Program-made: the position numbers and the translations under genes
From: Escherichia phage KIT01
Reading direction: 5' to 3' (one strand)
Length of the DNA: 64,000 nt
Sequence record: AP019521.1
The notes under the pieces: generated by a model
Database searches by the model: none
Told to the model about the DNA's origin: nothing
Seen by the model: the letters and a program-made list of their open reading frames with translations, nothing else
In this document: positions 3,693-50,573 of the stretch, piece after piece
Numbering within the stretch: position 1 is the stretch's first letter
Layout: each line of letters opens with the position of its first letter

Positions 3693-3971
3693 TTATTTCA
3701 TATTATTGAAATAATCTTCTGCATCAAAATCGTTATCATGATAAACTTTGGTAGACGATTTGGCGTAGCCTTCAGCTGAGAACATATTAATCACAACTTT
3801 AATTGTATACCACTGTCCATCTTCATTACCCATTACTGCATAGGTTTCATACACTGGGTGTTCAGGACCGATAACTTTAATATCGTTAACAGTAGCACCA
3901 AATTCTTCAGGAACGCATTTCATAAAGAAATTAAACAATTCACCATAATTATCCATTTTACTCTCCTTCAC
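3693..3971 (-). CDS. hypothetical protein
   Basis: 92-aa ORF; aaggag RBS (plus-strand ctcctt 3963-3968); conserved promoter-leader cassette upstream. Confidence 0.45.
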   Translation of the reverse strand: MKESKMDNYGELFNFFMKCVPEEFGATVNDIKVIGPEHPVYETYAVMGNEDGQWYTIKVVINMFSAEGYAKSSTKVYHDNDFDAEDYFNNMK

Positions 3972-3991
3972 ACTGTTGTTTTGATAGGTCT

Positions 3992-4020
3992 ATAGTATCA
4001 TGTTTAAAGGAGGTGTAAAC
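3992..4020 (-). promoter_or_regulatory. sigma70 early-type promoter with conserved leader TACTATAGACCTATCAAAAC
   Basis: minus strand GTTTACA-N17-TACTAT; cassette repeated at 7280, 7848, 41716. Confidence 0.5.
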
Positions 4021-4049
4021 AACTTTGTGAAATTATTTTTAGTTTAAAC

Positions 4050-4074
4050 CCCCAAAAAGGAGACCGAAGTCTCC
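4050..4074 (-). terminator. intrinsic terminator after IPIII-like gene
   Basis: hairpin ggagac-TTCG-gtctcc followed on minus strand by UUUUUGGGGGUUU. Confidence 0.6.
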
Positions 4075-4079
4075 TTTCA

Positions 4080-4688
4080 TTATTTACGAGTCTTTTCGAA
4101 CTGTGCTGCGTCACCTGCAAGGCGGCCCGCTTGGCGAAGTTTGTTATTGATTTCTTCGCGCATAGGCTGGGTATACTTAAGGCCTTCAACCGTCAGATAG
4201 AGACGATACAGGTCTGGGGTATCCAGGTTGTTAATGTGTTGACCATTACGAAGAGCGTTGAATTCACGAACAAGGTGTTTAGTTTCAGATTCGATTTCAG
4301 AAACTAAAGAAGCCAGTTGGTTATATTTTTTAACTATAGTGCTGGTGTCAAACTTGATTTTAGATTTAGGAGCTTCTTTTACAGGTTCTGGTTTAGGCGT
4401 CGGTTTCGGTGTTGCAACTTTGGGCTGAGCCGCAGGTTTAGCAACAGGAGCTTTAGCAGGTTTAGCAGCGCCACCAGCTACTATATCTTTAAAAGCTTTG
4501 GAAGCTTTGTAATATTCTTTCTGGCTGCTAGTATCAAAACCATACATATCATAGACGTTTTTAAAGAATTCGGTGGTGGTTTTAGTCCCAGAAATTTTAT
4601 CATAAGCTGCTTGCCACATATCTTTAGTCATGCGGATGCCGGCTTCACTCAGAACGCTTTCGTTCAAAAATTCATTGTAAGTTTTCAT
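4080..4688 (-). CDS. internal protein, IPIII-like, with N-terminal capsid targeting sequence
   Basis: 202 aa (T4 IPIII about 193); N-terminus MKTYNEFLNE matches T4 CTS consensus MKTYQEFIAE; Ala/Pro/Lys-rich linker; late promoter TATAAATA upstream. Confidence 0.6.
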   Translation of the reverse strand: MKTYNEFLNESVLSEAGIRMTKDMWQAAYDKISGTKTTTEFFKNVYDMYGFDTSSQKEYYKASKAFKDIVAGGAAKPAKAPVAKPAAQPKVATPKPTPKPEPVKEAPKSKIKFDTSTIVKKYNQLASLVSEIESETKHLVREFNALRNGQHINNLDTPDLYRLYLTVEGLKYTQPMREEINNKLRQAGRLAGDAAQFEKTRK

Positions 4689-4716
4689 TGGTATTTCCTA
4701 AGTTAATTAACTTATC

Positions 4717-4724
4717 TATTTATA
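4717..4724 (-). promoter_or_regulatory. T4-type late promoter TATAAATA
   Basis: exact TATAAATA on minus strand upstream of IPIII-like gene. Confidence 0.6.
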
Positions 4725-4730
4725 CAAAAA

Positions 4731-4752
4731 GCCCAACCTTTCGGAAGGGCCG
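4731..4752 (-). terminator. terminator-like hairpin (cccaacctttcggaagggc family) with U-tract
   Basis: GC stem, followed on minus strand by CUUUUUGUA; repeated at 5353 and 50552. Confidence 0.5.
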
Positions 4753-4756
4753 TGAA

Positions 4757-5311
4757 TCAATTCTTATAGAATCGGAACGGGTTTACGTGGAAGGCTAACA
4801 TAGCCTTAGGGATTTTACGAGACAAAAGACTCTTAAGTTTCCAACCGCAGTATACTCGTAGGTAAAAGGTAATCCCACCAACCTTAAGATATGGAACCGA
4901 AGCAAAGACTCCCCAGGCGTCGTCATTCCACATCCATAGCCACCCATGATGAGCTTTATCAGGAGAACCTGATTCCACATCGGGATTACCACGATAATGG
5001 AATTCTGAGCTACAATCACGGCCGAGTTTATGGTAAGCAAAGTTATAAGCTTTATTTCGCCACAACCAGGCTACTCGTTGAAGGTATATGCCTAAAGGTA
5101 GTTTTCTTATTTTAGCCCAACGTTTAATGTGACCTTTATCACCGTCAATTGGATTATCGTATGTCATCATCCAATCAAAGCCGTACGGCAATTTACCAGT
5201 CTTTTTATTGTGGAAAGGAACTACAAAAGGTGCAAGGATAACAGCCAGAACCATAGAGATAAAATCTAGTGGGACCAACAGAACCCAACTCAAATATTTT
5301 AAAAGTTTCAT
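4757..5311 (-). CDS. hypothetical protein with N-terminal hydrophobic segment
   Basis: 184 aa; late promoter TATAAATA at 5338-5345 and same upstream cassette as the IPIII-like gene. Confidence 0.45.
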   Translation of the reverse strand: MKLLKYLSWVLLVPLDFISMVLAVILAPFVVPFHNKKTGKLPYGFDWMMTYDNPIDGDKGHIKRWAKIRKLPLGIYLQRVAWLWRNKAYNFAYHKLGRDCSSEFHYRGNPDVESGSPDKAHHGWLWMWNDDAWGVFASVPYLKVGGITFYLRVYCGWKLKSLLSRKIPKAMLAFHVNPFRFYKN

Positions 5312-5337
5312 ATTATTTCCTAAGTTAGTTTACTACA

Positions 5338-5345
5338 TATTTATA
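5338..5345 (-). promoter_or_regulatory. T4-type late promoter TATAAATA
   Basis: exact TATAAATA on minus strand upstream of gene 4757..5311. Confidence 0.6.
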
Positions 5346-5352
5346 CAAAAAA

Positions 5353-5374
5353 GGCCCAACCTTTCGGAAGGGCC
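5353..5374 (-). terminator. terminator-like hairpin at the end of the tRNA/RNA transcription unit
   Basis: ggcccaacctttcggaagggcc followed on minus strand by UUUUUUG. Confidence 0.55.
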
Positions 5375-5389
5375 TTTAACCTAGGGTAA

Positions 5390-5750
5390 CCTTGTCGGGG
5401 TTCCACCTGCTAGGCAAGTGTTTGTACGAAACGCCAGGATTCGAACCCGGTTATTAAGTAGTTGACGCTACTCAATATTTTTAAAAGGCCATATCTCGAC
5501 CATATCCGAACGTTCCGTCAAAAACGCTACTCGGCTTACGGCAAAGATATTTCCTCGAATCGATAATTAGGTGCGCCGTTTCTGCTGTGATGTAAGGGGA
5601 CGTTAACAGATCGTAAAGATTTGTTAATGCCAGTCCTTACTCAGGGAACATCAGTCCGACGACTTACCGGTAGCGACCCGGTTTCTTGTTTGTTGCGCCG
5701 GTGAATGCTGGTAATCAGTCTTCATACGACGGCTTGACTATATAATAGTC
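5390..5750 (-). ncRNA. ORF-free region downstream of the tRNAs: candidate stable small RNA(s), comparable in position to T4 species 1/2 RNAs
   Basis: about 360 nt without ORF of 60 aa or more, bounded by tRNA-Arg and a terminator hairpin; contains a tRNA T-arm-like GGTTCGAATCC motif (5434-5450) without a full cloverleaf. Confidence 0.3.
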
Positions 5751-5756
5751 TTCATT

Positions 5757-5831
5757 TGGTATCCCGCCCTGGGATCGAACCAGGACCGCAAACTTAGAAG
5801 GATCGTATGCTATCCATTACACCAGCGGGAC
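5757..5831 (-). tRNA. tRNA-Arg (anticodon UCU), CCA encoded
   Basis: manual cloverleaf: 7-bp acceptor GTCCCGC/GCGGGAT, T-arm CCTGG-TTCGATC-CCAGG, anticodon loop CTTCTAA with U33 and A37; one mismatch in anticodon stem. Confidence 0.7.
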
Positions 5832-5836
5832 GTAGT

Positions 5837-5913
5837 TGGTGACCCAGACCAGATTTGAACTGGTAACCTTTCCCTTATGAGGGGACTGCTGCTAACCATT
5901 GAGCTACAGGGCC
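5837..5913 (-). tRNA. tRNA with CAU anticodon (Ile-lysidine type or Met), CCA encoded
   Basis: manual fold: acceptor GGCCCTG/CTGGGTC (one mismatch), U8, D-arm GCTCAATGGTTAGC, anticodon loop CTCATAA, T-arm ACCAG-TTCAAAT-CTGGT. Confidence 0.6.
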
Positions 5914-5918
5914 TTAAA

Positions 5919-6185
5919 TCAAACTACAAATCCAGCAGGAGCATTATCATCTTTAGCCATGTGCTGAATTGTATGATAAGTCATTTCTTCAGGAGCAACC
6001 AGATAAGCCGCAGCGTTAACTAGTGGAATTATTTTTGGTTTAGCGAATGTGCTATCGGCAATTGCCATAAAGGGCTCGCCATCAGTCTCAACTTCGCCAA
6101 ATTGACATTCATATGAAATAGAACAACGTTTGGTAGTTGTTGTCTTGGTTTCTGGGTCGTAAAAAGCTAATTTTAATACTAACAT
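5919..6185 (-). CDS. hypothetical protein
   Basis: track ORF 5919..6191 begins at GTG; ATG at 6185 with GAGGT RBS preferred. Confidence 0.35.
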   Translation of the reverse strand: MLVLKLAFYDPETKTTTTKRCSISYECQFGEVETDGEPFMAIADSTFAKPKIIPLVNAAAYLVAPEEMTYHTIQHMAKDDNAPAGFVV

Positions 6186-7058: not shown

Positions 7059-7243
7059 TATTCACCTTTAGAGATTTTATCCATAACGAAAGAAATTGAA
7101 CCAATTAAGAATGCCACTACTAAAGAGATTATATTCTCTGAAGTTGAAAGCATATCGAGCATGAATCCTGCAAACATACTAAAGCCAAAAGCAGTAACAG
7201 CGGCCAGTGCAGTAACATTTCTAATTAATTCACAACGTTTCAT
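7058..7243 (-). CDS. small membrane protein
   Basis: ORF 7058..7255 trimmed to ATG at 7243 behind ggagaataaa RBS; hydrophobic core VTALAAVTAFGFSMFAGF. Confidence 0.4.
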   Translation of the reverse strand: MKRCELIRNVTALAAVTAFGFSMFAGFMLDMLSTSENIISLVVAFLIGSISFVMDKISKGE

Positions 7244-7279
7244 TTTATTCTCCAATCACTCATTTGTTTTGATAGGGCT

Positions 7280-7309
7280 ATAGTACCATCACTAAAGCCC
7301 GTTGTAAAC
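7280..7309 (-). promoter_or_regulatory. sigma70 early-type promoter (cassette copy)
   Basis: GTTTACA ... TACTATAGCCCTATCAAAAC upstream of 7058..7243. Confidence 0.5.
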
Positions 7310-7311
7310 AA

Positions 7312-7584
7312 TTATTTTAAATAAATTGCATATTTTTTATAACCAGCCGTCTCGTGACGCAGTCCTTTTTCATTAGCAAAACGTTCAATATTGTTAATTT
7401 GATTCTGGTCGAGTTCTGAAGTATCAAAAACAAAAAAGTTTCGCTTATTGCCTAAAGTTACGTGATTAGTCAAATCGATGTTATAGAGATGATTTATATC
7501 ATCAATCATAGTCTTAACAGATTTGTTAATTTTTACTTCTTCATTAAGAAGAGATTCAGCGATAAATTCTTGGTATGATTTCAT
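7312..7584 (-). CDS. internal-protein-like protein with capsid targeting sequence
   Basis: 90 aa, N-terminus MKSYQEFIAE. Confidence 0.55.
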   Translation of the reverse strand: MKSYQEFIAESLLNEEVKINKSVKTMIDDINHLYNIDLTNHVTLGNKRNFFVFDTSELDQNQINNIERFANEKGLRHETAGYKKYAIYLK

Positions 7585-7585
7585 T

Positions 7586-7810
7586 TTATTCAGCGCCAGC
7601 GGCTTTCAAAAGTTTTTTAAGGTTGGCTATGCCGCCAGCAGAAAACGTGACCTTGCCACCTTTTTCATTGATAGAGCCAGTCAATTTAGCAAGCTTATCA
7701 CTAGGGACTTTTTTAAAATCAGCCAGTGTGCCATCAAAGGTTTTTGTAACAATTGGCAGTTCATCTTCATGTCTTTTAGCTTCGGTGATAAATTCTTGAT
7801 AAGTTTTCAT
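7586..7810 (-). CDS. internal-protein-like protein with capsid targeting sequence (IPI-position)
   Basis: ORF 7586..7822 trimmed to ATG at 7810 behind ggagaataaa; N-terminus MKTYQEFITE; lies next to 57B as ipI is recalled to in T4. Confidence 0.55.
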   Translation of the reverse strand: MKTYQEFITEAKRHEDELPIVTKTFDGTLADFKKVPSDKLAKLTGSINEKGGKVTFSAGGIANLKKLLKAAGAE

Positions 7811-7847
7811 TTTATTCTCCATTTCACTCTGTTGTTTTGATAGGTCT

Positions 7848-7876
7848 ATAGTATCATGCCTATAGACCTTGTAAAC
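7848..7876 (-). promoter_or_regulatory. sigma70 early-type promoter (cassette copy)
   Basis: GTTTACA ... TACTATAGACCTATCAAAAC upstream of IP-like gene 7586..7810. Confidence 0.5.
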
Positions 7877-7888
7877 ACCTTTTTTAAA

Positions 7889-8581
<693 letters not shown>

Positions 8582-27747: not shown

Positions 27748-27752
27748 TAAAA

Positions 27753-27770
27753 GGGCTTCGGCCCTTTTTT
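27753..27770 (+). terminator. intrinsic terminator after wac
   Basis: gggc-TTCG-gccc followed by TTTTTT. Confidence 0.7.
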
Positions 27771-27772
27771 GC

Positions 27773-27780
27773 TATAAATA
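27773..27780 (+). promoter_or_regulatory. late promoter TATAAATA upstream of gp13
   Basis: exact octamer about 22 nt before ATG. Confidence 0.65.
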
Positions 27781-50544: not shown

Positions 50545-50573
50545 CAAAAAAGGCCCAACCTTTCGGAAGGGCC
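50545..50573 (-). terminator. terminator-like hairpin between uvsW.1 and the minus-strand small genes
   Basis: ggcccaacctttcggaagggcc preceded on plus strand by acaaaaaa (U-tract on minus strand). Confidence 0.5.

Follow-up and report, generated by a model that had tools for sequence, protein, structure and literature searches.

The control elements described here lie in Escherichia phage KIT01, of which we analysed a stretch of 64,000 nt (hereafter the window). The window is of Dhakavirus type, that is, a T4-type coliphage like JS98 and AnYang, and its best match is AnYang (95.5% identity over 89% of positions 4000-6000). Two near-identical control blocks of ~70 bp, copy A at 4689-4752 and copy B at 5312-5375, are found on the minus strand, as are all the genes around them. 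In the order of transcription, the locus comprises tRNA-Met(cat) and tRNA-Arg(tct) (together 5757-5913), a 375-nt non-coding stretch, an open reading frame (ORF) of 184 aa (4757-5311) for a protein of the DUF7338 family, an ORF of 202 aa (4080-4688) of internal protein (IP) type, which we call IP202, and e.8 (3956-3693). The non-coding stretch contains homologs of rnaD (species 2 RNA; 5570-5689), identical to T4 rnaD at 104 of 118 aligned positions, and of rnaC (species 1 RNA; 5425-5563), identical to T4 rnaC at 137 of 139 nt. Block B precedes the DUF7338 gene and block A precedes IP202. A hairpin of unrelated sequence, AAAGGAGACUUCGGUCUCCUUU, with a U-run (4056-4077, -13.9 kcal/mol) follows IP202 as the predicted terminator of its transcript, and an early-promoter cassette (GTTTACA-N17-TACTAT.., 3957-4045) upstream of e.8 marks the right-hand boundary of the variable segment.

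Both blocks are built in the same order: a hairpin, GGCCCTTCCGAAAGGTTGGGC(C), a run of five or six T, a G, the box TATAAATA, a leader of 26-28 nt that includes AGGA, and the ATG. Copy B consists of hairpin GGCCCTTCCGAAAGGTTGGGCC (5353-5374), T6 (5347-5352), a perfect TATAAATA 1 nt past the T-run (5338-5345), and leader type 1, tgtagtaaactaacttaggaaataat (5312-5337), which carries its AGGA Shine-Dalgarno sequence at 5318-5321 and ends at the DUF7338 ATG. Copy A consists of hairpin GGCCCTTCCGAAAGGTTGGGCU, with an outer G.U pair (4730-4751), a T-run (4726-4730), a perfect TATAAATA (4717-4724), and leader type 2, gataagttaattaacttaggaaatacca (4689-4716), with AGGA at 4696-4699. The AGGA stands ~8 nt ahead of the ATG in both blocks, and the TATAAATA boxes lie 26 nt (B) and 28 nt (A) upstream of the start codons, as expected of T4 late promoters. 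A self-repeat search of the window returned the blocks as direct repeats of 43 nt and 21 nt (90%), interrupted by a 1-nt indel in the T-run, and global alignment of 4689-4756 with 5312-5379 gave 58 identical columns out of 70. The hairpin, T-run and TATAAATA are near-identical between the copies, ~12 nt of the leader differ, and the ribosome-site part, TAACTTAGGAAATA, is identical again. An earlier sequence-only reading had placed this repeat at 4691-4760 and 5311-5380, within 1-5 nt of the limits found here; its description of the segments as almost identical suits the hairpin, T-run, TATAAATA and TAACTTAGGAAATA and was slightly generous for the leaders. The hairpins of the two blocks agree at 21 of 22 positions, including the non-pairing U.U positions and the loop. 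With at most one mismatch allowed, this 22-nt sequence occurs at three sites in the window (4730-4751, with the one mismatch, 5353-5374 and 50552-50573), compared with 0.00 matches in 100 dinucleotide shuffles.

The stem is made of 5 bp, a 2x2 U.U internal loop and 2 bp, closed by a GAAA loop of the GNRA tetraloop type. As minus-strand RNA, the three copies fold at -12.8 (A), -17.9 (B) and -15.1 kcal/mol (third copy), with z-scores of -2.4 to -3.0, compared with -8.8 kcal/mol and a z-score of -1.3 for the plus-strand version. A U-run of 5-6 nt follows on the gene-sense minus strand only, in all three copies, giving the GC-rich stem-loop and U-run on the transcribed strand that typify intrinsic terminators. 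Hairpin B is thus the predicted intrinsic terminator of the unit that starts with the two tRNA genes and continues through rnaD and rnaC, and hairpin A is the predicted terminator of the DUF7338 transcript. A generic promoter and terminator scan left the repeated hairpins uncalled because of the internal loop, showed no excess of sites, and found no sigma70-like -35/-10 pair in the cassettes; we therefore assessed the hairpins by folding, covariation and orthology. Rfam searches, with gathering thresholds over the whole window and in E-value mode over 5300-5960, returned only the two tRNAs, with the hairpin, rnaC and rnaD uncovered.

Perfect TATAAATA boxes number 18 in the window, against 7.6 +/- 2.7 expected, a count reached by no shuffle, and most of them lie ~25-45 nt upstream of an ORF start. 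The T4 late promoter is recognized by gp55-RNA polymerase with no need of a -35 element (PMC2988020), so a late promoter can sit directly behind a terminator. Depositors of related genomes have independently placed late-promoter and terminator annotations on the same elements: the same TATAAATA is labelled a T4 late promoter in the record of phage SA21RB, and orthologous hairpins are called rho-independent terminators by two independent annotation pipelines. Folding, the perfect boxes, AGGA, compensatory stem changes (see below) and these annotations together support in silico the earlier proposal of a hairpin with U-tract, a late promoter and a Shine-Dalgarno sequence on the minus strand, and we regard the terminator and promoter activity of both blocks as predictions. 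Our literature search for Dhakavirus and JS98 returned no usable late-transcript mapping or virion proteomics. A further example is found on the plus strand at 27750-27780, where an unrelated hairpin, GGGCTTCGGCCC, with T6 and GC precedes TATAAATA ahead of an ORF start; the architecture of terminator followed by late promoter thus recurs with other hairpins.

The hairpin might instead act mainly in RNA processing or stabilisation, as a 3´ protective stem of rnaC precursors and late mRNAs, or in protein binding, with substantial readthrough. Such a role would suit the short U-run, the internal U.U loop and the GNRA tetraloop. Processing must moreover take place, as the 3´ end of mature rnaC is 51 nt short of the hairpin; in phage QL01 the DUF7338 gene has no promoter of its own, which implies readthrough of the hairpin upstream. 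However, the confinement of the U-run to the gene-sense strand in every copy and the two independent terminator calls argue for termination, and a stabilizing role does not exclude a terminating one. We consider it unlikely that processing or binding is the main task of this hairpin.

Hairpin B has a counterpart in T4, where AGCCCCGACCGAAAGGTTGGGGC followed by T5 is located ~50 nt downstream of rnaC. Because the position is the same and the sequences are homologous, hairpin B is, on this comparison, the ortholog of the conserved hairpin that closes the T-even tRNA-rnaD-rnaC cluster. We take the T4 hairpin to be an operon terminator. Approximately 570 phage records contain sequence similar to hairpin B, and the stem shows covariation when 14 distinct variants are compared: eight have G-C and five have C-G at one pair, a second pair is G-C, G-U or A-U, and in Tequatrovirus variants the U.U positions are replaced by A-U or G-U. 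The covariation score of the stem is 0.147, compared with 0.075 in shuffles, and was reached by 0 of 500 shuffles. Unlike in the window, the T4 hairpin is single and leads to the e.8 early promoter with neither a gene nor TATAAATA between them. What follows it, at 4826-4850 of the compared T4 locus (minus strand), is GTATCTAAG, where other phages have GTATAAATA; the T4 sequence may be a decayed late promoter left behind after loss of a cargo gene.

The cluster itself differs in several respects among these phages. The window carries only the Arg and Met tRNA genes, with 5831-5837 between them, where JS98 has tRNA-Asn, and 64 nt (5693-5756) separate tRNA-Arg from rnaD, which abut in T4. JS98, AnYang and vB_EcoM_005 lack the equivalent of 5423-5570, almost exactly rnaC, and keep rnaD and the hairpin. 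The rnaD and rnaC homologs are unannotated in most records, and neither RNA has an Rfam family.

The third hairpin copy (50552-50573, minus strand), which the sequence-only reading had pointed out, is indeed a hairpin with T6 and no TATAAATA; it follows a 55-aa uvsY.-2-like ORF that is convergent with a uvsW.1-like ORF. The stem recurs at this site in T4 and in a Mosigvirus, where the loop is UUUUU or AAAAA. By this comparison the third copy is an old terminator at its site; that it matches the cassette hairpin exactly in this genome may be due to gene conversion, or to chance among hairpins with a common stem.

The products of the two genes behind the blocks have no evident similarity and belong to different Pfam and PHROG families, and tandem duplication of a gene in situ was rejected as a source of the repeat. 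IP202 (phrog_2280) has homologs in 138 phage records, all annotated as hypothetical among the matches listed. It matches T4 IPIII over the first ~25 residues only, at 14 of 26 leader positions (MKTYNEFLNE vs MKTYQEFIAE); the leader also aligns with IPI, IPII and the other IPs of the window, and IP202 is distantly related to IP154 (25% identity, E 1e-5). The L/I-x-E cleavage rule of the prohead protease predicts a site after E10 (MKTYNEFLNE|S), which is followed by an Ala/Pro/Lys-rich linker, and the mature protein has a pI of 9.6. The earlier label "IPIII-like" thus fits the leader and no more: we rejected ipIII orthology, as similarity ends at residue ~25 and the true ipIII ortholog of JS98 is a separate gene next to gene e. 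An internal protein can be defined by its capsid-targeting leader (CTS; PMC3012670, PMC12373910). Because the match is confined to the leader and JS98 has its own ipIII, we class IP202 as an additional leader-bearing gene of IP type; it fits that definition, and its product may be packaged and injected.

The 184-aa protein matches DUF7338 (PF24027) over residues 1-183 with 214 bits (cut-off 27, E 1.7e-63). Its N-terminus, noted before as hydrophobic, is predicted to form a transmembrane helix, ahead of an alpha/beta domain. The suggestion that this protein is virion-associated, made from its position beside an internal protein, found no support, as it has no capsid-targeting leader, carries that transmembrane helix, and its IP neighbour is not conserved: the gene adjoins rI in Mosigvirus, and other genera have it within a tRNA cluster or next to one. 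Within the cluster it is found in Suspvirus (a Felix-O1-like genus of a different family); it lies in Karamvirus 72 nt after the last tRNA, with another hairpin and CATAAATA, in Gelderlandvirus 128 nt after tRNA-Arg, and in Pseudotevenvirus and Slopekvirus 0.6-1 kb from tRNAs (the genes in the compared loci of distant genera are at L026 3001-3558, L031 2001-2558, L030 1995-2555, L027 2001-2570 and L032 2001-2567). The exception to this neighbourhood is the rI locus of Mosigvirus. The recurrence beside tRNA genes could reflect a functional tie, or a hot spot for insertion that these phages have in common.

Comparison with relatives shows how the two genes and their blocks are put together. In the arrangements below, HP is the hairpin and PL the late promoter. 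The window, JS98, AnYang and NC-G share the order rnaC-[HP-PL]-DUF7338-[HP-PL]-IP202-other hairpin-early promoter-e.8. Mosigvirus HX01 and G53 have rnaC-[HP-PL]-IP202 homolog (64%); compared with HX01, the window contains one additional unit, [leader-DUF7338-HP-PL]. The DUF7338 gene is found at a different locus in Mosigvirus LF82-7 and PTK, as rI-[HP-PL]-DUF7338 (75% aa identity)-[HP]-early promoter. In QL01 the order is rnaC-[HP-PL-leader identical to type 1]-IP154-other hairpin-DUF7338 (no TATAAATA)-[HP]-e.8, in Tequatrovirus SA21RB rnaC-[HP-PL]-IP154 homolog-[HP]-another ORF, and in T4 simply rnaC-HP-e.8. Homology between the window and the rI-locus module of LF82-7, as found by blastn, extends from 5375 to 4726, from hairpin to hairpin exactly. 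The other blastn breakpoints are likewise in or beside regulatory blocks: homology runs up to 5328 and resumes at 4749 with HX01, runs up to 5343 and resumes at 4041 with T4, and breaks at 5290, 5327/4726, 4751/4664 and 4032 with QL01.

Gain or loss of the unit is seen most directly at the Mosigvirus rI locus. Phage mobillu has an empty site, rI-HP-early promoter, with one hairpin only. As far as the hairpin, this site has the sequence of the left LF82-7 junction, and from the hairpin on, that of the right one. What distinguishes the two phages here is exactly one 623-bp unit between direct hairpin repeats. When the occupied site was used as query, coverage of at least 80% was found in only 23 of 193 matching records, and the other records, among the matches listed, showed ~65% coverage in two pieces over a span of ~1,078 bp, the pattern of an empty site. 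By this pattern, most Mosigviruses have an empty rI site with exactly one hairpin. The search for an empty rI site in JS98 was uninformative, with rI.-1 overlapping rI there.

The leaders add further joints. Leader type 1 precedes DUF7338 in the window and IP154 in QL01, leader type 2 precedes IP202, IP157 or IP153 genes across phages, and one IP157 has the IP202 leader peptide on an IP154-type body. Cargo and leader combinations were also drawn from a pattern scan of IMG/VR (11 loci, several of which may repeat GenBank phage genomes). These combinations imply that the leader, and the start codon with the leader peptide, are exchange points as well. In JS98, where the hairpin occurs in three places genome-wide, copies A and B have different ribosome-site blocks, that of A being aacacaggaaaca. 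In UGJNEcP3, another Dhakavirus, rnaC is followed (~3127, gene orientation) by a Mosigvirus-type hairpin, GCCCC..GGGGC, and no TATAAATA, and the Dhakavirus variant of the hairpin follows DUF7338 (~4264, gene orientation), which suggests an inter-genus recombinant at the rnaC/DUF7338 locus.

These comparisons bear on whether the two blocks are related by descent at all. They might be alike through convergence, each held to the consensus of terminator, late promoter and ribosome site with neither duplication nor insertion. TATAAATA and AGGA are indeed consensus elements, and the middle of the two leaders differs, as do the two ribosome blocks of JS98. Yet any GC-rich palindrome can serve as a terminator stem, as the unrelated hairpins at 4056-4077 and before the TATAAATA at 27773 illustrate, whereas the repeated hairpins agree even at unpaired positions and in the loop, and what an occupied site has over an empty one is a unit with a direct repeat at either end. 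We regard convergence as extremely improbable.

We consider it probable that the blocks are composite cassettes and that the duplication represents the two ends of a late-gene unit inserted at a resident hairpin. The ancestral order would have been rnaC-hairpin-late promoter-IP202, as is still present in Mosigvirus HX01. A moron-like unit of ~620 bp, [late promoter-leader-DUF7338-hairpin], would then have been inserted at the hairpin, with DUF7338 as its cargo and hairpin A as its distal direct repeat, rather than a regulatory block being copied and pasted locally; the resident IP202 gene would have retained its own late promoter. That the repeated hairpin is both the end of the tRNA/rnaC cluster and the junction of module insertion and deletion was missed by the sequence-only reading. 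As to expression, hairpin B would stop transcripts arriving from the tRNA-rnaD-rnaC cluster, promoter B would start a late monocistronic DUF7338 mRNA ending at hairpin A, and promoter A would start a late IP202 mRNA ending at the unrelated hairpin at 4056-4077. Both TATAAATA boxes would be read late in infection by gp55/gp33/gp45-RNA polymerase, and late-only synthesis would suit a protein that must enter assembling proheads. Modules would come, go and change place at the hairpin and T-run, a direct repeat of ~30 nt in all, and likely routes are homologous recombination at this repeat between co-infecting genomes or by way of excised circles. We infer this exchange mechanism from the repeat-flanked indel and from the precedent of the PeSL (promoter-early stem-loop) cassettes of T4-type phages, described together with PmSL (promoter-middle stem-loop) cassettes (Arbiol et al., 2010, PMC2839356; Comeau et al., 2014, PMC4122927).

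The likeness to PeSL and PmSL cassettes is considerable. At both copies a stem-loop stands directly upstream of a promoter, which is followed by a Shine-Dalgarno sequence and start codon, and the element is repeated in the genome, in hyperplastic regions, next to places where close relatives differ by indels and replacements. The indel found here between direct repeats agrees with a prediction of the PeSL mini-circle model, the circles themselves being postulated in our case. Unlike in PeSLs and PmSLs, the promoter is the late TATAAATA, of the gp55-dependent class, and not sigma70-like early or MotA-dependent middle (Mot box), and at the core of the repeat is one particular conserved hairpin, that at the end of the tRNA/rnaC cluster. 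The difference in promoter class makes the cassette a variant and not a PeSL or PmSL proper. The term "late promoter" is absent from the main text of PMC2839356 and PMC4122927, and no late-promoter version of PeSL or PmSL is described there.

Both loci at which the module is found lie in regions that carry homing endonuclease genes in related phages, and these endonucleases could drive the transfers. Repair of double-strand breaks made by a segB-type endonuclease in the tRNA cluster, or a mobD-type one near rI, could move modules by co-conversion, with the hairpin merely the place where tracts end. T4 has segB in its tRNA cluster, AnYang has a homing endonuclease gene in the tRNA region ~400 nt upstream of cassette B, and a mobD.2 label is found among the features beside rI in a Mosigvirus record; Comeau et al. 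(PMC4122927) note that plasticity also comes, in parallel, from homing endonucleases. However, positions 5380-5920 of the window contain no endonuclease ORF, and co-conversion accounts for replacement at one locus, not for one unit at two loci with the same 30-nt repeats. We regard such endonuclease-driven transfer as quite unlikely.

Several other observations weigh against insertion at a resident terminator-promoter element. The U-runs are short (5-6 nt), the stem is interrupted by the 2x2 U.U loop, and the generic terminator scan was negative; the terminator and promoter functions are, as stated, predicted ones. Only two full copies and one lone hairpin are present per genome, here in 64 kb, far below the numbers reported for PeSLs, of which RB49 has dozens. 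A shared repeat of ~30 nt is short for efficient homologous recombination. Intergenic breakpoints are also expected from selection for viable recombinants, so that breakpoint position alone is no proof that the hairpin causes recombination. Finally, the DUF7338 gene of QL01, which has no TATAAATA of its own, shows that the description "insulated late gene" is not universal. We nevertheless favor insertion of a late-gene unit at the resident hairpin. A bolder version strikes us as a long shot: hairpin and late promoter would serve a dedicated exchange system, specific for structure or sequence, as its attachment site, and this system would move self-contained late-gene modules (DUF7338 and diverse injected anti-defence genes of IP type) between loci and Tevenvirinae genera; DUF7338 might also have a function tied to phage tRNA clusters, its recurrent neighbours even in unrelated Felix-O1-like phages.

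The unit also invites comparison with two other known arrangements. Morons are autonomous promoter-gene-terminator units, typically expressed from a prophage. As with the morons of lambdoid phages, a unit of promoter, one accessory gene and terminator is present or absent here between otherwise collinear genomes; unlike those, it is found in a virulent phage, its predicted expression is late, and it is bounded by a repeated hairpin. The T4 rnaC-distal hairpin discussed above is matched in position, sequence and compensatory stem changes, and differs in being single and followed by GTATCTAAG.

The IP genes of T-even phages are accompanied by homology blocks, reportedly of 70-100 bp. As these blocks of Repoila et al. 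(1994) are described in PMC2839356 and PMC4122927, they resemble the present case in that variable IP-type genes with a conserved N-terminal leader have conserved non-coding elements on both sides, for which a part in shuffling has been proposed; the leader is a joint here too, as in the IP157 hybrid. According to Arbiol et al. (PMC2839356), the elements of the IP loci are T4 early promoters with weak AT-rich stem-loops, and the regions upstream of T4 ipIII and ipII indeed have GTTTAC-type promoters and no TATAAATA. The rnaC-e.8 locus, unlike these blocks in the accounts cited, is not among the two classical IP loci, and its DUF7338 cargo is not an IP.

The window also contains a second repeated cassette, of ~92 nt, on the minus strand at 3954-4045, 7241-7330 and 7808-7900 (three copies, mean column identity 86%). 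It is of early-promoter type, TGTTTACA-N17-TACTATAG(A/C)CCTATCAAAACAA..GGAGA.TAAAATG, and precedes e.8, a trna.4-like membrane ORF and an IP-type gene, respectively. By sequence, these early cassettes look like the PeSL and IP-locus elements of the literature. Two further IP-type genes are located at 7586-7810 and 7312-7584 (minus strand), at the ipI locus beside 57B, with leaders MKTYQEFITEA and MKSYQEFIAES; alignment of the cassettes puts the true start of the first at the second ATG (7810), not at 7822.

Current understanding of these phages is not overturned by the cassettes. They do widen the PeSL/PmSL concept to include late promoters, and the interval from rnaC to e.8 emerges as a third locus of IP type. 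In T-even phages, internal proteins are injected and inhibit restriction systems of the host such as GmrSD (PMC12373910); which IPs a phage carries shapes its host range. The rnaC-e.8 locus shows at base-pair resolution how IP genes and an unrelated membrane-protein gene plug in and out, and a ~30-nt exchange hairpin would at the same time give each module late-only expression. For phage engineering, the hairpin would be a naturally tolerated insertion point that comes with a ready-made late expression cassette.

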